Positions 2,401-40,543 of a DNA stretch of 60,549 nucleotides are shown piece after piece. The notes beneath the pieces were generated by a model. The model had not been told where the DNA came from and did not search any database. It saw only the letters and a program-made list of their open reading frames with translations. Position 1 is the stretch's first letter; every line of letters begins with the position of its first letter. The stretch is from Rhina ancylostomus (Eukaryota), in contig JARFYF010000022.1 in the NCBI GenBank assembly GCA_030265395.1, positions 25,825,427-25,885,975 of the forward strand. The letters run 5' to 3'. A program made the position numbers and the translations under genes.

Positions 2401-5400
2401 CTTGACCCTCCCTATGTAGCCAGCTGATATCAGATGTGGCCCAGGAGAAGATAACTGATATTGGCTCAATTCACTTTCCAGTGAATTTGGAGAATTTTGC
2501 TGCAGATCAAGTCACCTGTGCCACCTTATGAGAGGGGCACTACACTCTTGACTTTCTCGTTCTCTGTGATGTGGAAGACCACAACATTCTCCTTCAGTGC
2601 CTTTTCTCTGTGGTTCGGTAGACCACCGTTGATTAATTCTAGTTTTAATTAATCAGCTGTCAAGCAAAAACCATGTATGCTTTCTGCTGTATAATCTCCC
2701 ACAACTACAGTTAATAAGTAGGAGATAAATCTCTTTGAAAGGAAATCAGAGAATGGGGAAGTTCCCAGAAGTAACAACTTATAAATTTTAAAATATATCC
2801 TTTTCCTTCTGTTTGTTCTGGGATTCAAAGGAAATGATGAAAATAAATTTTAAAGTTATATTAGATTATTCATACTTAGATGGAGATTGTAAATAAAAGT
2901 TCTGAATATTGTTGTATATATTTGAACAGAACTTTTTAGAACTATGGTGCTTACAATAGTATTCTGTAAATGGAGAAACAAATCACAGTAATGTTGCCTT
3001 ACAATTTGTATACATTTTGACCACTTATTTCTTAAAATTTACATCCCAAACTGAACTATAAGGAACTGCCTTGCATACTTCATGAGATGTTTATTTTGTA
3101 AGGAGCAATAATGCAGAAGACTGCTGTTATAAAATTTTCTGAGCGATCTTGCAAATCACTATTCAAATATTTGCAGTGGAAATGTCCAGAAACATCCTCT
3201 CTCTTGACCTTTTTGTCACTCCAATGCCAAGCAATGACAAAAGCACTGACTCATTAGGAGCAAGNNNNNNNNNNNNNNNNNNNNNNNNNNNNNNNNNNNN
3301 NNNNNNNNNNNNNNNNNNNNNNNNTCTGCTTTGAACTAAAGTACACTTTGCTGCTTAACATACCTCAAAGTTTGTGCAACATTGGCTGAATCAACACACA
3401 GGTACGCAAGATGCACCATTTTCCCTCAGGCTGATTTTATGCAATTTTCACATGTGATAGTATTTAATAAGTCATAGGTCTAGCTGGATAATGTAAATAA
3501 TTTACTGTTTTTGCCTGTAGCCACCTTTTTAGCACTGTGGAACATAACTGAATATCACAGAAATGTGATGACTGGATGTGAGGCCCTGCCAAATTATGGT
3601 GTAAAATATTAAATGTCTGTGAAGCAACCTCAGTCTACCTTTTGAGTCTTATACTGTGCTTATTCAGGAAATATTCAAATGATTCATATCTTAATAATTA
3701 AAAGAAATGTGTTTAAATACATAATAAAGCCAGAAAATGTGGAAGCAAAAATTTCAAGTTAATGATTTTCATCAGAACTGAGATAAGGAATTTAACAGGA
3801 TGAAACTTCATCTGGTGAGAGAATCCAGAAGGAAAGGTTAGATCACTGGTGATGACCCTTTGGAATTAATGGACTATTTGTTCAGTGCACATGGCTCTTA
3901 TATGCCAGGTGCCTATTTCGTTAGAAAATAGAATGCAAATTTAAGATATTGTTTCCATAAGAACTGTAGGTTGAAATTAATATTCAAAAAATTTCCTGAG
4001 TATGACATGGAAGAGCATATTATTCTCCTGGGGTGTGTATTCTCCATCAGTCACTGCACTGAGATGGTTGTTTCATTATTCTGCCCTGATCAGTTGTAAG
4101 ACAAGTTTCTGCTACATCATCTCTTGCAGCTACAGATGGCAAAGAGAAGAACCCAGCTACCTTTAGAAAGGAAATCAGAAAGCGGGGAAGTATCTAGGAG
4201 TAGATATCCTACTTGCTGTGATTGTTTATTCTTAAAATTAGACCACAACAGTAAAGGGGTGTAGTTCCTCAAAATAATGCCTCTTACACTGCATGTGATT
4301 TAACATAAAATAGGTTACCGTCTGTTTTGCAAAGAGTAAAAGCATAGCAAAACAGCTAGAATACTTTTTTTTGCATATTGATCTTCCTGTCTGATATCCA
4401 GAAAATGCTGACTCCCACATAGCTATGATTCCACCAAAGGCATCAGCTGCTGTCCTTTGCCTTACATAAATGCCAGTCTTCACCTCTGAACCTACCCAAT
4501 TAATAGAGGGCTGTTTAACCATAGATGTCATTATAACTTGGCTCAACAATGTCCAACAGTTGGCATTTGAACAGAAAGAAACTTCCAGATTCACCCAATC
4601 CCATAGCCTTCAAAGGCCAGGACCCTGAAGTCATTTGGAACAGTGTGAAGACAAAAGGAACTGCAGGTGCTTGAATCTGGAACAGGAAACAGAATGCTGG
4701 AAGAACTCAGCGGGTTAAGCAGCATCTGTGGAGGCAAAGGGTGTAAGTCAANNNNNNNNNNNNNNNNNNNNNNNNNNNNNNNNNNNNNNNNNNNNNNNNN
4801 NNNNNNNNNNNNNNNNNNNNNNNNNNNNNNNNNNNNNNNNNNNNNNNNNNNAGGAAACAGAATGCTGGAAGAACTCAGCAGGTTAAGCAGCATCTGTGGA
4901 GGCAAAGGGTGTAAGTCAACGGTCCATGTCGAGATCCTGCATCAGTCCCAAAGCACTTCACAATAGAACAATCCAACAAAAAAAATGTCGGGACGAACAG
5001 CTAGGCTGTAATGAACACTGAGAGGTTGGGAGGGTAAGAAATTTAGTGAGGATCTGATTTTGCTTAGCACCACATCAGCTGAAGGCAAATTGGCTAGTGC
5101 TAGAGTGATTAATTTCGGGTATAAGACACAAGAATCATAGTCTCAGAATTCAAATTAGTCGAATTAGTTCAAATCCATTAATCATCCTTAGATTATTATT
5201 CATCTACATATCATATTTGTTGATGGTGTTGTTTTTACTTGAGCCATGAGGGAAATTACACTTAAATATACGCCAATACAAAAAAATACATGAGCACAGA
5301 AACATACTTGCATTCAAACTCAGTGTTATTTTTGTTCTGTTTAATTCCTCATTTTATAGTGACACATATGTCCTTTATGTCTGAGACAGAAGACATGCAC

Positions 5401-8400
5401 ATGGTGATATTTATTTTGTATTTGGTTTTGTTTGTGGCTTATTAACACCATTTTTGTGAAACTGGCATCAACTCCACTTGTTTGTGGTCCACAGTCACCA
5501 CAGCAGCTGGTGGACAGTCTGCTTACAATAGATTCCATATGTGCATAGACCATTGTGTTGGAATTTACAGGGTTCAAGCCATTAAATAATGGGCATTGAA
5601 ACACAACACTTTTTATCCCCCTCTTAAAATCCATTTATAGTAGACTAGATCTAACAGAGGGATAAGGATGTGCGTGTGAACTCCATGTCTACATTCAAAT
5701 GCAATTTAGTGTTGGCAAGTGAACTTTAGTTTTGGCAAGATGTGCTTTGCCTGTGTAACAAGAAAATCTTTATAGTTGTGTTTATTAAATATATCATAAA
5801 AGCTCTGATATGCTACTGGGAAGCAAAAGAATTTCAAAACACACCAAGTCTTGAAAGCAGTTGTGTAATTTTCTACAGCTATTTGATGGATGTATGCATT
5901 TTGCTTGCAAACTATGCATTTCCTTACAAGACATTATATGAATTGGGAAATCAAATTTGTTCTTGGGCAGATGAAGTACCAGAAATCTAAAGTCAAAACA
6001 GATTATGTTGCATGTTCTCAGCAGGTGAGGCAGCATTTTTGGAGAGAGGATCAAAGCTAGTGTTTCAGTCCGTGCTTAATCCAACTTGCTGCTTCCACTT
6101 GCCTTTTGCGCAACCCCCTCCTCTCCAATGGCACTGCAGTACCAGTAGAATGGATCAGAGACATTTAAGGACTGTTGAAAATGATTAAATTATTTCTGAA
6201 AACTAAAACATTTTTAAAAATAAAGCTACTTTTAACAAAAAGTAAATACATGGTGAAATAAAAATGAACAAAAATCCAACAAATATACACGTTGGATGAT
6301 GGTCAGAAGAATAGGTCAATGCTAAATATAATGCTGCTGACATAAAACTGAGTGGCCAGACATGAAATGTATCTGGTCTCTCGTATGTGGCTCCTTGTCA
6401 CAGTAAGTTACAGAATGCCTTTGAATTCAATGATGAGTCCAGGGGAACAGCAGAAGGTGAGATATGCTTGCATCTATCCTCTATTGCATTCTTCTATGCT
6501 GCAGACCTTCTCCACAATACTGCCAGCTAGCCATCAGAATGATCTCCCCAATAATTTGGTTTCTCTCTCTATTTATGCTGCCTGACCTGCTAAGAATTTC
6601 CAGTATTTTATTTTTTTTATTTCCAATGACTGTAAAACTTCTTTATTTCTCATCTTGAAGGATTCAGGATCTGTTACTAAGTTCCATTGCTTCCTTTAAA
6701 ATGAGCAATGTTCTGTTGGAAAAGCATTTTGATGATAAGTCTGCAAGTGACTAGGCTGCCACCCATGTTCCTTTCATGTGTTTGTGCTGTAATTAATGTG
6801 GAAAACATGCTGTCTGCTTAGTCACTAGAGGTGACAGAATGTTGCAGTGGTAACCTTCATTGTGGTTTTAAAAAAAATTCTCATGAATGTTTATTTCTGA
6901 TTTTTACATTTGTATAATTTGAGGTTCTTTTTATCAGCTCCAGTCGGGCAAGGAAAGAGTTTGTTTCTATCATCGATGTCAGCATAGTGCTTTGGCCTTT
7001 TTAAAGTAGCGGAGTCAAACAATGGTTGATGAATTAAATGGAAACTGAGGCTGTTCATTTTTCACTGTACTAAAATTGCTCTTGCAAATTTATTCCCTGC
7101 CTCCTTTCTTTCCAGTATTATGAGTTAATGTGGTTCACTTTAATATCTTCCCCTAAAATGCTGGCTACTTTTACTGGGGGAGAATGAGCAACCCAATTAC
7201 AAGCAGCTGACATTTGTTTATTGGCGATATCGGATAATGGACTGTGAAGAATTTTGGGAAAAGGAAATGGTGTTTTTGGACCTTGAGCAGATTGTGAAAA
7301 ATGTTTGCTATGTTCAGACCTAAACTCACATCTTCACTGTGTTCCAAACCACCATCCAGCCACTATATCTCGTTGTAATGAGATTTAATAAGCTCCTAGT
7401 GCAGTAAAAATCCAGTGATACAGAATATGGCAAGTTCTTAAGGAAATTAAAAGACTGACTTCAGCTTTTTGTGCTAACAGGTTAAATCTGCATTGCAATG
7501 AAATTTTTTGCTGCAACTGTTTCAAAGTGATTTTTCCAGAAGGGCTTTTGGCACATTGATGAGTAGTTTTGGATCAAACCTGATCATTTCAATAGTATGT
7601 TTTAAGCCTTTATGATATCAGAGTTTTGTACAAGACTAAGAGATTTTATTTTTGATGTTTTGCCACTCTTCGTTTTTAGGCACTTAGGAACAAATGTAGC
7701 TGTTTATGGTTGATGCCAGTTGTGCCTGTATGTTCTTCCAATAAGTTTTGTTTTTGCACAAGCTTAGTCCATTAATTGAGTTACATTCAAATGTTGCAGA
7801 AATCTATATTGCAAGAAATTAAGAATGAATGACAGGTGCTGATGTGTTGGTGCGTTGCTGCATGATCACAGCTGGTGACATGATCGACAGTCACAAGTGT
7901 TCAAATGCATGTATCGATGGACATACACATTAATATCTTTGTTTATACAACAAAGTTCTAAAAAGTCTGATTTGCTAAGTTGATTGTGTGAATTTGTAAA
8001 GGAAAAATACCTTTAGGCAGAAAAGTAATGGCTGTGTTATATTATGATACAGGTCATAACTTAAGATTTAAAAGATCCCTGAAGATTTTTCCCATTTTTC
8101 AGAATTTCATTGTGCCCAGTTTTGCATTTTCACTCCTTAACTGATTTTTGGAGACATTCTGGCTCCAAGTATTATTCTACATATCTGTAACTAATTAAAG
8201 AGGATTATTCAAAAACTGGCTTTGTTTATTTCCTCACCTCATCCATCCCAAGCAATCTAGTGGTAAACTAGCAGCATTTTCAAACCTGTGTACCTGACAA
8301 ATTACAGAACACTTGAGTGTTCTGTAATCCACACCATCCTTCTCTACTGAATATTCCACTATTTTTGTTTTGGACGTAACTAAAATTGGCTTAATTTTGA

Positions 8401-11396
8401 ATCAAAGGATCAATACAGCAATGAGTACTTTAAAGGAGTTGCCTTGGACCATATTTGTTTTCAATTACTTTGTGTAATTTATTTTCTTCATTCGGACATC
8501 ACACGGTAGATGTTATTCTGTTTTAAATGTATATTCATGTTTTTGCTATATAAATGATTTTTAAGAATTTCTTTTTATAATCAAGGAAATGGAATTTAAA
8601 CACACTTCCTCAGATTCAGGAAGTGCTGAAGTTGATATCGGTGTGTTTCCTCCAGCTGGTATGAATCATGCCCTAGTCTGGACAGGAAAGAATACAAGGT
8701 CAAAGAAAACATCTCTGAGAGAACTCTTGGTTTTGTTGATTTTTCTCTAAAAATTGGTTAGAAGTCAGAGGCTAATTTGATTGGGATGTACAAGACTATT
8801 CATTCACTAATTTTTAGTGGTATGTTCTCTCCTTGTTTTCTGAGTTATTATGTCCCTAATTATAATGGAAACCACCTATGTAAACTTGCCCACTTGTAAG
8901 TTCATACTCCTACATGAGGCATTGATGACAGAAGAGCTAGATGGAAAAGGGAAATAGGAGGCAAGGAATATAAAGCATAATAGGAAAAATTAAGTAGAAA
9001 GGAGAGAAGGTAAAAGATGGACAGAAAGAATGCAGAAATTGAATAAGTAGTTTAATGGGCAACCCTAATTTTTAAACAATAAATCATAGTTCTAGCATCT
9101 CCCACAAGAAGAAAGATCCTCTGCACTTCTACCCTGTCAAGACCTCTCAGGATCATATTGGTAAACTGAAGTGAACTAATAGGCAGATGGTAAACCAACC
9201 AAGAAAGCTTCCTTATGGGTTTTGTTCTACATCCAAAAAAGTTAGGCTTTATTCCCTGCCTCCTTTATTTCCAGTAAAATTAGTTGATGTGGCTCACTTT
9301 AATATCTTACCCTAAAATGCAGGCTACTTTTACTGGGACAGAATGAGCAACCCAATTACAAGCAACTGACGTTTTTTATTGGTGATGAAGGATAGTAGAC
9401 TGTGAAGAATTTTGGGCCTAAATTCATGTCTTCACTGTGTTCCAAACCACCATCCAGCCACTATATCTTGTAGTAATGTGATTTAATAAGCTCCTAGTGC
9501 AGTAAAAATCGAATGATACAGAATGTGGCAAGTTCTTAAGGAAATTAAAAGACTGAATGCAGAAATTGAATAAGTAGTTCAAGTAATTGAATAAGTAGTT
9601 TGAATAAGCAATCTTGGGTAAAGTTACAAGAATTCCAGTCCTGTATCCTGCCTTCTCCCCTCATAATCTACCCACCCTTCTGCTTCCCATTCCTCTCCCA
9701 TCCTCCTCAACAAGGACTGAATGATTTTAATTCTGGAAACTCAGTTCCAAATCAAGATGGCAACAGAGGTGATATAAAGTTGTTTCACTCCATTCACAGT
9801 TGTTTTGTCATTGAGGTGAATTTATGTAGACAAAACATATAAATGTGGAAATAGAACATTATAATAGAAAGAGTTGATACACAGCATGTTAAAAATGTCA
9901 AATGTCACAATAAAAACATGCTTTTTTTCTAAATGGGAAGAAATACACTGATTTTCTGGTCATTTGCTATAAATAGGAAAAAAATCACCTAAATCTTTTT
10001 AAGTTAGTAATTAAATATAGTGCTTGGATAAGGCCTATTGAGAAGTGTGGAATGTGGTGTAACCAAGGCTGAGAATAGATCTACTGATGAAGTCAGTAGT
10101 TCTCTACTGGGAAGTGGATGAATACTGGAAAATTAGTGTTGGATGAAATCCAGTTGTTTTCAGAAGCGCAAGATAGTTAGGTTTCTATTCCCTTGCTCAA
10201 CGAAGCTGCTTAATCCTGATTTCCCCCCCCCCCCCATCAATTCCATCAGGTGTTCTGTCAAATGCAGCAGCCAATACTACCACATNNNNNNNNNNNNNNN
10301 NNNNNNNNNNNNNNNNNNNNNNNNNNNNNNNNNNNNNNNNNNNNNNNNNNNNNNNNNNNNNNNNNNNNNNNNNNNNNNNNNNNNNGCCAGCAGGTGGACT
10401 GTCCAATGCAGCAGCCACTACTCCCACAGTCTACCCCCCGAACTGCTTCCCTACACCTCTCGAGGCTGGGACTCAAGGCTTCCATTTCCCAGTCCATGAA
10501 TTCCTATCAGTATTCAGAAACACTAGACTGCATCTGTAGTTCTCTTTGATATCAGAACTGATCCCATGGATTCTGAACACTAACATCATGTCAAATTTTC
10601 CAACACATCCTAGCATCTGCCCAACATTCCTAACATTTCCCTTAGCTTGGCCTTGGACCTCGACCAAATCTTGACACTCTCAGGTAACTCTAGTTTGTAG
10701 AAGTAATTTTGCTTGGTTCTATTATTCTTATAAAACCTTCAGCTCATCATGACTTTGGCTATGGAAAATCACCACAGAGATCACAGGAATACACATTAGT
10801 AGTGAAGAAAAGTGCAATATTACTTTAGAAATAGAATTCCCCTCATTTTCTCAGTAAGTGTAACAACTTTAACAAAATTTAAAGAAATGAATGTAAAGTT
10901 TATTTTTGAACCATTCAGTTTTTGTCTGAAATTAAAGCTCATCAGAACTGAAACCCCCAAGCTATCTTCAGAATCAATTTATTTTGTCAAGAAATTTTCT
11001 ACTATAGAAAATGAAATTGTAATCCTGAATTACCACGTGTTGGAAGTACAGAATATTGTTGAGAAATGTGAAATTTACAGCAGTGTAACGAAATTAAGTT
11101 GTGACACATTTGCCACAATAATATGTTGCAAATGGAAATCATTGGGAGAAATAAAAGCAAGTTTCAAAAACTGAATGCACGAATAATTCATAGAAAATAA
11201 ATGGTACTAAAGTAATTCCTGTCAGTTGATCATACCTTGACTGATTTGAAGAGGCCATTTTCTACATTGATTCTTTTTTGTTTTACAGTCTCAGGTAGAA
11301 TACAAGCCTAACTTTTTTGTATGCAGAATAAAACCCATAAGGAAACTTTCTTGGTTGATTTATCATCTGCCTGTTAGTTCACTTCAGTTTACCAAT

Positions 11397-11740
11397 ATGA
11401 TCCTGAGAGGTCTTGACAGTGTAGAAGTGCAGATGATCTTTCTTCTTGTGGGAGATGCTAGAACTATGATTTACTGTTTAAAAATTAAGAGTTGCCCGTT
11501 TAAGACAACAATGAGCTGAAAGTTTTTTCTTGAGGGTATTGAGTCTTTGGAACTCCTCAAAGAACAGTGGAAGCAAAGTTTTTGAATATTTTGAAGGCAG
11601 AGGTAGATAGATCCTTGATAAGCAAGAGGTTGAAAGGTTATCAAGGACAGGCAGGAATGCAGAGTCAAGGTTACAATCAGATCAGCCATGTTCTTATTGA
11701 ATTATGAAGCAAGCTGATGTACCTCTGCTCCCAATTCACT
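11397..11740 (+). mobile_element. Old CR1 LINE 3' fragment; boundaries approximate
   Basis: Typical CR1 ORF2 end (TTGAAGGCAGAGGTAGATAGA) and 3'UTR (AGATCAGCCATG..CTTATTGAA). Confidence 0.65.
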
Positions 11741-14944: not shown

Positions 14945-17781
14945 GGAGGGATCAAAAAAAAGACCTTGGCCTTCCCAATATTTCATTCAGCCAAGTATTG
15001 GCTCATTCAGATATTCAACAAGCAGGCTTGGCGACTTAGGAAAGTTGGAGGGTCAAGAGAGGTGACAGCAAGTTAGAGCTGGGTGTGGAAACCAGTGTAA
15101 TGCTTTTGGATGATACTGAATAACTGCTATTGTGTTGCAGTGTTGGCTGCACCAGCCAAATCACTGTAATCTGGCTGCATTTACCAACAAATCCAGGAAC
15201 CTTTGCACTCTGCTGCCCTTTTTAGACTACATTTTAGAGAACCAGTTGTTGCTGTTGCCATCAGCCATGTCAGACTTGTTTGCAGGGAGTTAATAGAACT
15301 AATACAACATCATGAATTCTGTAAACAAACTGTACAGGAAAGGAAGAAAAGGCCACACACACTGGGCAATTTTCCCACTGGAAGTATTGTAAATGTTATT
15401 TGATCTGCAGACAAAATAAGTTTAGCAAATAATATTAATAATATATACAATGCATATTTGTTAATCAAGTATTTAAAATAATTTGGATTTGCTTTATTTT
15501 AATTGTGATTGATAATTCATTAACTTATAATAAGGTAAATTTTTAATTTTATGCTTGTTTCTAAATTTGATAGTTGCCTACCAGTTCTTAACAAGCTCCA
15601 AGTATAATTTTATTTCCTTTCACTGTCCTTTTTCCCAGCCAATATACCTTAATCCCAATTCCAATATCCTGTGGCATTTTCACACCCTCTTGAATGAAAC
15701 TTTTCAAAAAGTACAAACAGGAAAATATGGACCAACTAACCAAGTGATTATTATGACTAACCTTCAGAGTTTGTTATATGAAGTGAAATTATTGAAAACT
15801 TTCTGAACCTTAGTGTAATCAGAGAATCGCATGAATTTCAAAGAAGAAAATGGTGCTTGACAAATAAAGAAATGTTGCTGTTTGTTATAGTGTATGAATT
15901 TTCAGGTGTTTTTTTAACATGCCTCATAGGGGCTAGTTATGAAATTTTGTATCTGTGGCATTAAAAGAAATTAATAGAATAAATCAAAAAACAGCATATG
16001 AAGCAGTATCAGTGCAGAAAATCAGAATCGGGTTAATTATCGCTGACCTATGGCCTGAAGAGGAGTTGACATTTCACGTCACCCTTCATCAGAACAGTTC
16101 TCTGTCCACAGATACTGCCTGACTTGCTGAGTAGTGCCAATGTTGTTCATTTTATTTCTGATTTTCACAGTATTTAGCTTTTGAAATTGGTAAATGTTGC
16201 CTGGTAGAAAACACTGAATAGTAGCAGGTAGAGCTTTTTGTGGAGAGCTGGGCATAGATGACCCTGCTGGAAGCTCCTTTTTGCCAAACTTGTGATCTGG
16301 ACATGGTTGCAAGAAGATTAACTGGAAACTTACTACTGATAGCAAAGTAACAAAATACAGTCTTTAAGAGATAATACAGGAGTAAACAAGATTGTATGGA
16401 AAGTAAAATTGATGAAGACTGAATGAAGGGAAATGCAATCATTGTGAAGTGGCACAGTTTTGCAAAAGGATGCTGTGACAAAATTTGTAGAATCCATAAC
16501 TGGATAGAACAGATCAATTTGAGGTTGCATTTACATTGATTGTTGGGAATGCAAATAGAGAAGATCATAAAATGGCAAGTGGCAATAATTTGCTGCCTCA
16601 AAATATATGCAATTTATGAAATGTAGAAATAAATCATTATTGCTGAATCTTTATGAGACGTTGTATTTGGCCACACTTGCAACAGAAATACTGGTAACAC
16701 CTTCTGGTCTCCTTATTTAAAGAAAGATACAGAAAAAAGAAGGATGAAGTGAAAGTTCACTGGAATGTTAACAGAAAAAAAAGTTATGAGAATTGGAACT
16801 CTGAATCATTTTAACCAGGATGTGACAGTTTGAAAGCATCAGGTAGAAATTTTCAAAACTCAAACTGATTTTGAAAATGAAAAGAATTAAGATTTTTATT
16901 GAAATCAATGACAAATCTAGACTGAAAATTATTTCTCAAGGGAAATTGAAGAAAAATCTTCTCATACAAAATAGTTGAACTTGGAAGTCATAATTTGGTT
17001 TTAACTCCATTTTTGATTAATTAAGCAGATAGTGCTGGCATCCAATTGGATTTCCTGCAAAAATCATGTAATTATCTAAAAATACTTTAGAAATTGTAGT
17101 ATGGTGGTTCATACCCAGAATCATGTTCTAAAACGGGACTTGTGTGGTTCCAGATGGGACCTGACCAAGTTTAGCTCAGTTGGAAACACTTTGCTATGCA
17201 GCAGTCATGGAGGAGTGTCAGCTCTTTAAGGCACACTCTCTGTGGCAACAAGTCAGCAACAAAACACCATGAGAGGGAGAGAACTCCAGTTCTCTGGTGG
17301 CTGAGACCAGGAGGAAGGTCTGGTGTTCTAAGGGTTCAGGAGACCTGTTAGGGTCACCCTTCAAAACGTGTGGTGGGAATTAGCAACAATTGTCTTCTGG
17401 TTTGAGAATCCTCATACTGTGGAGAAATTTGAGATGAAATTTTAAGAGATAATGAAATATTAAATGTAAATATTAAATTTAAGATGTAATAATGAAATAT
17501 TAAATCTTAAAACCTGCAGACAACTGGTGCACATCAGGATTCCACAAACAAAGTAAACTACATGTTTCCAGCATTTTCTGTTTTTATTTCAGATCTCTAG
17601 CATCTGCACTTTGTTTTAATTTTTACTCCCATAATGGGAAGGAAATTACAGGTTTCAGATCCAGATGGCTAAGTGGTGATATATTTCCACATCAGGATAA
17701 TGTGTGTGGGGCTGCACTCATCCAAGCAAGCGGAGAGCAATCCATCATGTTCCCGACTCGTGCCCTGTAGATAATGAAAAG

Positions 17782-19090
17782 TCAGAATCAGGTTTATCAT
17801 CACTGACATATGTTGTGAAATTTGTTGTTTAGTGGCAGCGGTACAGTGTAAGGCATAAAGACATAACATTTACTATAAGTTACAAAAATAAATAAATACT
17901 GTAAAAGAGGAATAACGAGGTAGGGTTCATGGACTGTTCAGAAATCTGATGGTGGAGGGGAAGAAGCTGTCCCTGAAACGTTGAGTGTGAAACGTTCAAG
18001 CTCCTGTATCTTCTCCTCAATGGTAGTAACATGAAGAGGGCATGTCCTGGGTGGTGAGGGTACTTAATGATAGATGCTGCCTTCTTGAGGTACCGCCTCT
18101 TGAAAATGTCCTTGATGGTGGAGCGGGTTGTGTCTGTGGTGGAGCTGGCTGAGTCTACGACCCTCTGCAGCCTCTTTCGATCTCCTCATTGGAGCCTCTA
18201 TACCAGGCAGTGATACAACCAATCAGAATGCTCGCCATTGTACATCTGTAGAAATTTGCAAGAGTCTTTGATGACATACCAAATCTCCTCAAACTCCTAA
18301 TGAAGCAGAGCCATTGGCGTGCCTTCTTTGTGATTGCATCAGTGTGTTGGGCCCAAGATAGATACTCTGAGATGTTGACGCCCAGGAACTTGAAGCTGCT
18401 CACCCTTTCCACCACCCTACCATCAATGAAGACTGATGTGTGTTCTCCTGACTTCCCCTTCCTGAAGTTCACAATCAAGTCCTTGGTCTTACTGACATTG
18501 AGTGCGAGATTGTNNNNNNNNNNNNNNNNNNNNNNNNNNNNNNNNNNNNNNNNNNNNNNNNNNNNNNNNNNNNNNNNNNNNNNNNNNNNNNNNNNNNNNN
18601 NNNNNNNNNNNNNCTACCATCAATGAAGACTGATGTGTGTTCTCCTGACTTCCCCTTCCTGAAGTTCACAATCAATTCCTTGGTCTTACTGACATTGAGT
18701 GCGAGATTGTTGTTGCGACACCATTCAACCAACCTACCTCACTGATCTATCTCATTCCTGTATGCCTCCTCATCGCCAACTGGGATTCCGCCAATAAGTC
18801 ATCGGCAAATTTCTAGATGGCATTTGAGCTTTGCCTAGCCACACAGATATGAGTGTAGAGAGAGTAGAGTAGAGGGATAAGCACGCACTTTTGAGGTGTG
18901 CCTGTGTTGATTGTCAGAGGAGTAGATGTTACTACCGATCTGCACTGAGTGTGGCCTCCCAATAAGGAAGTCAAGGATCCAGAGGGAGGTAGAGGCCCAA
19001 GTTTTGAAGCTTGTTGATTAGTGCTGAGGAGATGATGATGTTGGATGCCAAACTGTAATAAATAAACAGCAGCCTGATGTATGTTTTACT
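17782..19090 (-). mobile_element. Rex1/Babar-type LINE 3' part
   Basis: WCRNNNLALNVSKTKELIVNFRK...SFKFLGV...LRRFGMS...FYRCT..SILIGCITAWY. Confidence 0.88.
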
Positions 19091-37204: not shown

Positions 37205-38856
37205 TGAAGTAGACCTTAATTGGAGGGCTGAGGGCTGAGGCCTACTTCAGTATTAATTCAGGAAGTCTGATGAAATATGGTCATCTGCTAAGGAAGTTGA
37301 CAACCTTCTCATTTCTTCTTCTTTCATATTCCTGTCCCTGTCTCTCATTCCTTCATAAAACCCTTGCCTGATCCCATCTTTGGCCAACCCCATCCCCCTT
37401 CCCCTGACATTGGCCTGATGCTATGAGATCCTTTTATATCCTTGTGCCACCCCGATATTCTGTCATCCACCTTCTCAATCCTCTCTCATTGCATCAATTA
37501 TCCTCTCTCAATACTTCCATAATAATCTATACACCCCTAATCCTCTTTCTACCACATGATCTTCTTTACCAACAATCGTCTCTGTTGTAACCTCCCCTAT
37601 TCTTTATCTATATTCCTCCTGATCCACCCTCTACAACCTCCTTGATCCCCCCACTACCTTCCTCCTCAATCCTCTCTACACCTCCGATCCACTCCCCTAC
37701 CCCAATCCACTCTCAAATGCTTTCTTTATCCTTCCCCATCCTGTCTTTACTCCTTGTTCTCTTACATTAGCACCATCCCATGCAATTCACAGACTGACTA
37801 ATTTACTCCACCAGATCTGCAACAGTAGAGCTCCCAGAGAAAAGACAATGCAAGGTCTGTTCTGTCATGCATAAGGCTTTGGGCTGAAGACAATTTTGCT
37901 GTTAGGGTACATTGCACAATCCTGATGTAGACATCCCCTCCACCCATGCATTGCCACTTTCATGACCCTTTTTTGGCGCTATTCAATTTCCAGCCCAGAC
38001 TGCGCAGTCCTGATTGTTCCATGTGATTTTGATAAACTGGAGGATTCCAGCAGAGTCATTAGCAATTGTTTCTTTGGATAATCCATTCATTGAAAATGTT
38101 GCTGTTAGAATTTAAACTTTTATTTACTGGGCAAACTTTCATAAAGATTCTGAATTTTATTTTGGCTTGATGCTAGTTGACTATCCCAGCAGTGCTCTCT
38201 AGGGAAATGAAAAATATAGANNNNNNNNNNNNNNNNNNNNNNNNNNNNNNNNNNNNNNNNNNNNNNNNNNNNNNNNNNNNNNNNNNNNNNNNNNNNNNNN
38301 NNNNNNNNNNNNNNNNNNNNATGCTTATTTTCTTTAAAATCAGAATTGGACCTCTGAGGCTCGCAAAACACCCCTGAAATGTGGTCAGCTAGCTGGGAGG
38401 GCAGTCTCTATCTCCACATAAATTGCATGACCAATCCTTAAATAAACTCCAAATCCTTAAATTATGTGATCTTCCATGATGCCATTGGAGAACTGACCTG
38501 CCCTCATGCAGTGCAGTATTTATTTGGAATGGATACTGAAGGATTTTTAATTTGTAAAATCGCTTTCGACCCTCTGCCCAAGAGATTGTGCCCACGCCCT
38601 GCAAGCGCCCTGGTCTGATTGACTGGTGTTGTCTAAAATCCTGTTCTGTTTAAAAACATGCAGAGTAATTGAAAAGTATTGGATGGGATGAGCTCAATGC
38701 TGGTGCATGGGGTCCTCATATCAAACCCCTTTGCCTTTTGATAGTTTCTTCATTCAATGAATGATGAGTGTGTCTCTTTAGAAAAAGATAGTAAAAATGT
38801 ACAGCATCGAGTATGAAAAGTTTATTCGTAGCTGAATGAAACAAATCTTCTTTCAG

Positions 38857-39093
38857 AACCACCAACCTGTTCACCAGAACAATTCACATGTGCAACAGGG
38901 GAGATTGACTGTATCCCAATGGCGTGGCGTTGTGATGGCTTTGCAGAATGTGATGATAATAGTGATGAGGAAAACTGCCCAATCTGTTCTGCCAACCATT
39001 TTCAGTGTGAAAAGGGCCAGTGCATTGATGGAAGTTTACGATGCAATGGTGAAGTAGATTGTCAAGATAAATCTGATGAGGAAAACTGTGATG
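38857..39093 (+). CDS. LRP5: LRP5 exon 18 equivalent, LDL-A repeats 1-2
   Basis: cag|AA...G|gtaata; 237 nt; [27 protein letters not shown]...SDEENCD. Confidence 0.97.
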
Positions 39094-39762
39094 GTAATAT
39101 TTTTTTCTCATCTAATTACTCAGTATTCAAGTATATTGGGTTTGAATGACATGGTTTAAGCTAATCTTTAATCAGATGCAGAAATTAAAGTTTAAATTAA
39201 CTATGACATTAAAGAGTTGATATATCATGTATATATGTTTGTCTCAAAATGCATTATTTAGCATTCTCCGTCCTATCATTGGTATTCTTGGAGAACATTA
39301 ACTAATTTGGTTCCATTACTGTGGAAAATAACTACAGCAGTCAAGCGATATCATGGAGGCAATGTTAATGTCAAAGCAGAAAGCAGGAAAAAAAATAGAT
39401 TAAAATGCAAACCGAACATAGCTCAAGATCTGACTGTCAAAAAACTCATAATGCAATTTTTGAACATTGCACCTGTATGACTAGAGGATGAGAATGGTAA
39501 TCTTAGCAAAAGAGTTGAGTTGAATGTGGGGTGAAAATTTTATTGAACTTGACCTCCCTGAAGAAGTTAAAAATGTATAGCAGAAAGTGAGTCTTTACTC
39601 AAAAGCCTGTGCAAACTGTATGGACAGCTATCATCACAGTGAACAGTGAGTGTCGTTGCCTTGCCATAAAAGTTGAGCCTTTCACACTGGTAAGGTTAAC
39701 TACTGACCTGAGCAAAGGAGAATCTGAAGAACTATCCAGCAAAATACAAGCTAAAGACTTCG

Positions 39763-40128
39763 ACATAAGAGATTCTGCAGATGCTGGAATCTCAAGCAAC
39801 ACACACAAAATGCTGGAGGAATTCAACAGGTCAGGCAGCATTTATGGAGGGAAATAGACATTCGACGTTTCAGGTCGAGACCCTTCATCAGGACTGGAAG
39901 TGAAGAGGGCAGAAGTCAGAAAAAAAAAGGTAGGGGGAGGAGACCAGCTGTNNNNNNNNNNNNNNNNNNNNNNNNNNNNNNNNNNNNNNNNNNNNNNNNN
40001 NNNNNNNNNNNNNNNNNNNNNNNNNNNNNNNNNNNNNNNNNNNNNNNNNNNNNNNNNNNNNNNNNNNNNNNNNNNNNNNNNNNNNNNNNNNNNNNNNNNN
40101 NNNNNNNNNNNNNNNNGCATTTTGTGTG
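39763..40128. mobile_element. Penelope-related repeat with inverted ends, interrupted by a gap
   Basis: CACACAAAATGC on the left and GCATTTTGTGTG right of the gap; carries the hammerhead motif; related copies occur across the window. Confidence 0.6.
39859..39896 (-). ncRNA. Minimal type I hammerhead ribozyme motif
   Basis: CAGUC-CUGAUGA-AGG(GUCUCGA)CCU-GAAAC-GUC-GAAUG; core intact, 3 bp stem II, stem I 4/5 paired. Confidence 0.65.
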
Positions 40129-40432
40129 CCAAGCTAAGGACTTGTCGTTCTGGACGAGGCTTGCTGAATGACTTGCAAAAAATATATCTAAGTCTAAATG
40201 GCAGTTTCAGATGTAGTGGAAATTAAACATAAAATGTTCTTTTTCCTTCATAGCAGAATTTCATTTTAGTAACACTTCATATTCAATGTATACCCACTTT
40301 TGATAGCCTGTTGTATTACATGATAAGCTGAATTCTTGCATTTGCTCTTTGAGTTGCACAGAATGTTAAGCTGGTTGGTCATACCACAAACTGTTTGATT
40401 TCTTCTTCAAAACTGATTTCCTTTAATTCCAG

Positions 40433-40543
40433 TTATTTGTCATCCGAGCCAGTTCCGCTGCAACAGTGGTCAGTGCATTTTGAAGAAACAGCGTTGCAAT
40501 TCATTACCTGATTGCCATGATGGATCAGACGAACTCCTTTGCG
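40433..40543 (+). CDS. LRP5: LRP5 exon 19 equivalent, LDL-A repeat 3 (absent from the ORF track)
   Basis: cag|TT...G|gtaagt; 111 nt; [36 protein letters not shown]. Confidence 0.96.

Follow-up and report, generated by a model that had tools for sequence, protein, structure and literature searches.

A minimal type I hammerhead motif lies antisense in an intron of LRP5 within a 60,549-nt stretch of Rhina ancylostomus DNA (the window). It is very probably the hammerhead-bearing 3' end of a Penelope-like element (PLE) encoding a reverse transcriptase (RT) and a GIY-YIG endonuclease (EN), now an old fold-back stub flanked by a 14-bp target site duplication (TSD), and this copy is likely inert. The motif is a further example of a kind already known (Cervera and De la Pena 2014).

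The motif and its insertion in LRP5

The host gene was identified as LRP5 on the plus strand, with a ray LRP5-like protein as top match (99%), and the nearest named relatives of both the host gene and the element's protein come from rays. As exons of this plus-strand gene were mapped on either side (Table 1), the minus-strand motif is antisense and intronic, as a preliminary description of this DNA had claimed. Read on the minus strand from 39896 to 39859, the motif is CAGUC CUGAUGA A GGGU CUCG ACCU GAAAC GUC GAAUG. It contains the CUGANGA and GAAA core boxes and the NUH triplet by which minimal hammerheads of metazoan PLEs are recognized, lacks helix III, and has ACGU as its palindromic 15.1-16.1 segment. 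The unpaired base between positions 9 and 10.1 and the G10.1-C11.1 pair are present in the subfamily master, while the pair at 10.1-11.1 in this copy is a G-U wobble owing to CpG decay; the wobble and a stem I mismatch are the two changes that separate the motif from the master. The core boxes, GUC triplet, ACGU palindrome and four of five stem I pairs are thus as first described, and the consensus CAGTC...GACTG predicted for the family is the one given by the 29 other best genomic copies, which are 87-92% identical to the LRP5 copy. Stem II had been drawn with 3 bp and is redrawn here in the family register, with an unpaired A followed by 4 bp (GGGU/ACCC) around a CUCG loop.

Table 1. Features of the LRP5 intron insertion and flanking exons (window coordinates)
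Feature	Position	Strand	Basis or remark
LRP5 exon upstream of host intron (LDL-A repeats 1-2)	38844..39092	+	tblastn of P0008
Left TSD (14 bp)	39747..39760	+	13/14 identical to 40130-40143
Repeat 3' of hammerhead, including ~41-nt extension ("tail") missing from other arm	39761..39858	-	repeat comparison
Minimal type I hammerhead motif of PLE pseudo-LTR	39859..39896	-	direct reading, subfamily comparison, core descriptor
Predicted cut site	between 39864 and 39863	-	after GUC
Hammerhead core	39891-39885	-	then GAAAC-GUC box
Pyrimidine-rich PLE 3' UTR upstream of hammerhead, entering gap	39897..39951	-	matches upstream flank of EN-linked copies
Assembly gap, 165 N: head-to-head junction and most of inverted arm	39952..40116	.	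contig ends of orthologues
Visible 3' end of inverted arm, tail-less	40117..40128	+	exact 12-nt consensus match, ends 41 nt short of repeat 3' end
Right TSD (14 bp)	40130..40143	+	pairs with 39747..39760
LRP5 exon downstream of host intron (LDL-A repeat 3)	40433..40543	+	reading frame, AG and GT borders

A descriptor of the core matched twice in the whole window against 0.12 matches expected, and none of 100 shuffles reached two. Because the only other match is 24 kb away and has a broken stem II, the LRP5 stub is left with no same-strand mate. An Rfam scan returned zero hammerhead matches at E<=10; as the Rfam models appear to expect helix III, the missing match is no argument against the motif. 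The predicted fold of the 39859-39896 copy is not a hammerhead (z -0.51). The hammerhead motif at this position is confirmed by direct reading.

The insertion is a 369-bp fold-back (39761-40129) whose flanking TSD was matched as well by 0 of 2000 random draws. Its left arm runs from the full 3' end of the repeat and, past the hammerhead and 55 nt of UTR, enters the gap. On the other side, orthologous contigs from three of four related organisms carry 14-16 more letters of the repeat into the gap, the fourth stopping at the gap, so that 26-28 nt of the inverted arm become visible. These letters establish that a partner arm exists and that it is inverted and tail-less; it is known from its 3' end only, any hammerhead of its own would fall beyond the visible part, and no contig of the four organisms spans the gap. 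Of the earlier proposal that a partner is hidden in 39952-40116, the second arm therefore stands, while its role as dimer mate falls away, since a head-to-head partner cannot form a ribozyme dimer with the 39859-39896 copy. Being inverted, the arms would instead pair with each other as a hairpin within any one transcript. Such arrangements recur in the genome, with a head-to-head partner within 450 nt for 28 of 163 randomly sampled copies. Both ends of the LRP5 insertion are common to the four organisms, whose flanks diverge by up to ~5%, and the insertion is therefore old. A second, small fold-back stub of the older family was seen at 16054-16141 of the window, where the minus-strand arm keeps the core boxes and has lost the 3' side of stem II.

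An inverted truncated copy and a one-sided tail of 30-40 bp are features of EN+ PLE insertions, and both occur here, the tail being 41 nt long; the TSD, inverted arm and one-sided tail match the insertion layout published for PLEs in the parts of PMC8557442 consulted. We infer that the parent endonuclease would have cut the two DNA strands 14 bp apart and that reverse transcription, primed at each nick, would have begun at one of two RNA start sites ~41 nt apart, leaving two short head-to-head arms, one tailed and one tail-less. The tail agrees with the pair of RT start sites demonstrated in vitro for a PLE of Anolis, in which both strands are cut and extended, as given in the sections of PMC11167929 covered.

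Several other features were observed in the window. A strong tRNA match (65 bits) lies at 55720-55792 on the plus strand and a weak tRNA-like match (31 bits), probably decayed, at 59519-59591 on the minus strand. A 184-nt inverted pair, 95% complementary and 2 kb apart (9066-9249 and 11304-11487), has direct repeats of 84-92% nearby (7089-7464 and 9248-9562), which together are possibly a DNA transposon or a local duplication. Near-identical short duplications flanking 100-N gaps (4684-4919, 18417-18710 and 2175-2366) are probably assembly artefacts.

The repeat and its parent elements

The window holds at least 11 matches to the tail of the repeat. In longer copies the hammerhead is preceded by the pyrimidine-rich UTR and by the last part of a GIY-YIG frame, which has a CX2-5CxxC linker and CCHH residues; an RT with DKG and YIDD motifs lies further upstream. 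With two EN queries, the repeat was found on the same strand ~230-510 nt downstream of the endonuclease in 11/30 and 22/30 loci, each count including the query's own locus, and it lay downstream of RT on the same strand in 8/29 RT-picked loci. These picked sets are small samples of the best-scoring loci, the first EN query alone having 36,443 first-look candidates, and in many protein-picked loci that lack the repeat there are N gaps downstream. RT, EN and repeat are collinear, with no N between them, in two loci (L074 and L098). A single ORF in which RT precedes GIY-YIG was seen in sister copies and in the intact relative described below, with Pfam scores under the curated cut-offs, and is absent from the LRP5 stub; decayed RT and EN fragments had no Pfam match, and longer pieces and homologues matched weakly. 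The CX2-5CxxC linker and the endonuclease CCHH, read in translations, are among the motifs described in the part of PMC8557442 covered, and by these motifs, as distinct from a reference tree, the family looks Neptune- or Nematis-like. Three ray database proteins named for unrelated host genes (P0001, P0004 and P0007) also contain the element's endonuclease sequence, which suggests that these gene models absorbed PLE fragments.

An apparently intact PLE unit of 3,210 bp, circularly permuted, was found on contig C2762 (L332, 1-3287). The contig ends overlap by 77 nt. The frame has no in-frame stop and gives 738 aa at one contig end plus 212 aa at the opposite one, matching the Pfam families RVT_1 (E 4.6e-5) and GIY-YIG (E 2.3e-4), both below cut-offs. 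There is one hammerhead per unit, with a canonical core, N7=C and a GUU triplet, and the first ATG of the long frame comes ~140 nt past the cut site. L332 is a unit of a related family; other scored matches to its pseudo-LTR (pLTR) region are 75-84% identical, with short stretches up to 93%. Possible identities of the contig are a collapsed tandem array, circular DNA and foreign DNA. With L332 and the EN- and RT-linked loci, the motif is placed in the pLTR of a PLE, where minimal hammerheads are found. The earlier view of a minimal type I hammerhead of Penelope type, carried by an abundant repeat (159 copies per Mb), is upheld. The separate non-autonomous retrozyme that had been proposed alongside it was not borne out, as the repeat is the 3' end of RT and GIY-YIG elements and 1.2 Mb contained no homogeneous tandem array.

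Abundance, 5' ends and decay of the copies

A tail-only profile was run over 120 stretches of 10 kb, spaced evenly across large scaffolds (1.02 Mb once N are discounted). This revealed 163 copies, or 159 per Mb, against 0 in the reversed control, which extrapolates to ~3 x 10^5 copies in the genome; 144 copies were usable, 19 being left out for a cut tail, N or an edge.

These short repeats could instead be a non-autonomous unit, SINE-like or a retrozyme, transcribed and moved by PLE proteins. In favour of this, EN coding sequence was found within 900 nt upstream of only 7 of 134 random copies, leaving 127 with none. The 5' ends were counted in 60 copies from two groups, replacing an earlier count on one subfamily's flank (9/89 at or past the cut site and 34 at the front edge). 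In this recount 22/60 copies begin at the 5' edge of the motif, in a zone of 13 nt, which, like the rarity of upstream EN, also fits short self-moving units, and PLE-derived retrozymes are reported from one cartilaginous fish in the portion of Li et al. (10.64898/2026.07.22.740005) covered. However, the ends run on continuously into UTR and ORF, with 25/60 copies reaching at least 20 nt upstream of the motif, and the LRP5 copy itself includes at least 55 nt of the PLE 3' UTR. None of the 60 begins at the cut site, although a cleaved monomer or circle predicts such starts, and the 5' ends after GUC anticipated in the preliminary description were accordingly missing from this sample. Moreover, when same-strand neighbours no more than 1.2 kb apart were compared (18 pairs), their mutual scores were only 35-80 of 100; the pairs are therefore not arrays. 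We consider a non-autonomous unit improbable and favour truncated PLE 3' ends. For an intact motif the predicted fold is a single long hairpin, which might promote termination or fold-back where these 5' ends cluster, at its front edge.

The core is intact in 17 of the 144 random copies, about 1 in 8, and the LRP5 copy is therefore unexceptional; nor is it among the best, since 45 perfect 38-nt copies exist genome-wide. It differs from its subfamily master at 9/101 sites. In 18 protein-picked copies of that subfamily, non-CpG changes number 12/175 in the core versus 95/972 in the tail (p=0.26), and G12, a CpG site, is lost in 7/17, like other CpG sites (whole core, 2/18). With a core no better kept than the tail and about one copy in eight intact, near-intactness is not supported as a sign of function. 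A sister subfamily carrying a U4A change gives a point against this neutral-decay reading in its core retention, with 10/160 changes in the core versus 110/848 in the tail (p=0.016), a tail that mixes sub-lineages; G12 is lost there in 10/16.

Stem covariation was scored in 83 of the 144 copies, those with a recognisable 5' core. Between subfamilies the 2.1-1.1 pair switches from C-G to U-A (42/76 paired versus 31.7 shuffled) and the 10.1-11.1 pair from G-C to A-U (48/79 versus 33.4), so that the expected covariation holds for these two compensatory switches, while the other seven pairs have no alternative pair type. These are two events only, both of which set the older family apart, but they fit selection on the fold in active masters.

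Conservation of the LRP5 copy itself, or of its hidden sense arm, as an active intronic ribozyme or RNA hairpin acting on LRP5 transcripts could be argued from its intact core, from the insertion's presence in four organisms and from a sense arm that would sit in LRP5 pre-mRNA. Against this, core retention is at the level of chance, stem I is broken, the 10.1-11.1 pair is weakened and each arm would mask the other. Minimal PLE hammerheads, moreover, do not cleave as monomers and cleave only weakly as dimers (PMC4209133, in the sections covered), and the Anolis hammerhead is not cut without its protein, cleavage being unneeded for insertion in vitro (PMC11167929, likewise in part). A retained function in LRP5 is thus very unlikely. 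For the inert PLE stub favoured here, published work suggests how the parent would have operated: hammerheads of successive units in head-to-tail tandem transcripts would pair through their ACGU palindromes, and the dimer would cut after GUC, probably with help from the element protein, to yield unit-length RNA. The LRP5 copy, antisense, with no such mate nearby and presumably bound in a hairpin with its other arm, has drifted after insertion, its intact core being a matter of chance.

Core variants and comparison with known elements

Core variants were scored on protein-picked loci because clustering on the tail only mixed subfamilies. A pattern leaving positions 4 and 9 free had 157 exact matches; among the first 100 matches listed, position 4 was U in 60, A in 30, C in 9 and G in 1, and position 9 was A in 86, C in 11, G in 2 and U in 1. 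Among copies from the second EN query, excluding the query locus, 16/21 have A4 and 4 combine U4 with C9, versus A4 in 0/19 copies from the first EN query or RT. The U4A copies are set apart by tail and UTR variants of their own and by branches that are long and star-like, and the change therefore sat in a widely spread coding master; it represents one event or a few rather than 16. The C9 variant can just as well be read as an altered bulged base, if the bulge precedes A9. The stem II loop of one C9 group is UUCG, and N7=A is combined with a GUU triplet in another group. In the EN tree only the canonical subfamily is supported as a clade (100/100), and the tree gives no order for the core changes.

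Most core changes sharply lower hammerhead activity according to PMC3088659, which in the sections covered mentions U4C and does not name U4A. No U4A hammerhead variant was found in the literature searched, chiefly the running text of open papers, and the variant may already have been published. Tentatively, and with more doubt than confidence, we propose that the U4A subfamily, with tens of thousands of copies, and the C9 masters either are unreported core variants that cut with the element protein, or indicate that self-cleavage is dispensable for Penelope retrotransposition in vivo, the motif being kept as a structure.

The closest known systems were compared through the parts of each source covered. 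The minimal hammerheads of metazoan PLEs (PMC4209133) are alike in lacking helix III and loop 3, in a palindromic 15.2-16.2 segment, an extra base between 9 and 10.1, a G10.1-C11.1 pair and a helix I of 4-5 bp, in their pLTR location, in mostly solitary copies from truncated elements and in opposite-strand pairs 100-700 bp apart. Here, in contrast, the host is a cartilaginous fish, which the sections covered do not mention, stem II is short (4 bp), copies number ~3 x 10^5 by extrapolation, and U4A, or a C preceding the bulged A, occurs in sister subfamilies, the paper naming a U3-A8 variant. Neptune and Nematis EN+ PLEs (Craig et al. 2021, PMC8557442) share the RT motifs DKG and YIDD, a CX4CxxC linker and, at the C terminus, GIY-YIG with CCHH, as well as partial tandems, an inverted copy truncated at its 5' end and a one-sided tail; the LRP5 copy differs in having no coding sequence, and the clade is assigned here by motifs alone. 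Poseidon of Anolis (PAc; Frangieh et al. 2024, PMC11167929) also has a pLTR hammerhead and a tail from two RT start sites, and both strands were cut and extended in vitro with no RNA ends at the cut site. Its ORF, however, begins inside the hammerhead, versus a first ATG ~140 nt past the cut site in L332, and the linker Zn finger is missing from its clade. Non-LTR retrozymes (Li et al., 10.64898/2026.07.22.740005) are similarly non-coding and PLE-pLTR-derived with a type I hammerhead; they consist of head-to-tail tandem units each with a hammerhead, whereas the LRP5 copy is a head-to-head stub. On the sequence visible outside the gap, assignment of the LRP5 copy to this class was rejected, as its partner is inverted where at least two head-to-tail hammerhead units are expected, and 1.2 Mb holds no arrays.

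The LRP5 copy itself is of little weight, being one of the ~3 x 10^5 decayed ends left by elements of a known class, while the family bears on the question of what PLE hammerheads are for. The lack of starts at the cut site, neutral decay and the spread of non-canonical subfamilies agree with the cleavage-independent insertion seen in vitro (PMC11167929, in the sections covered). On the opposite side, stem covariation between families and the canonical core of one intact unit argue for selection on the fold in active elements. If the proposal concerning the core variants is true, the canonical, U4A and A9C masters, together with an intact relative in one genome, would make the purpose of the ribozyme directly testable.
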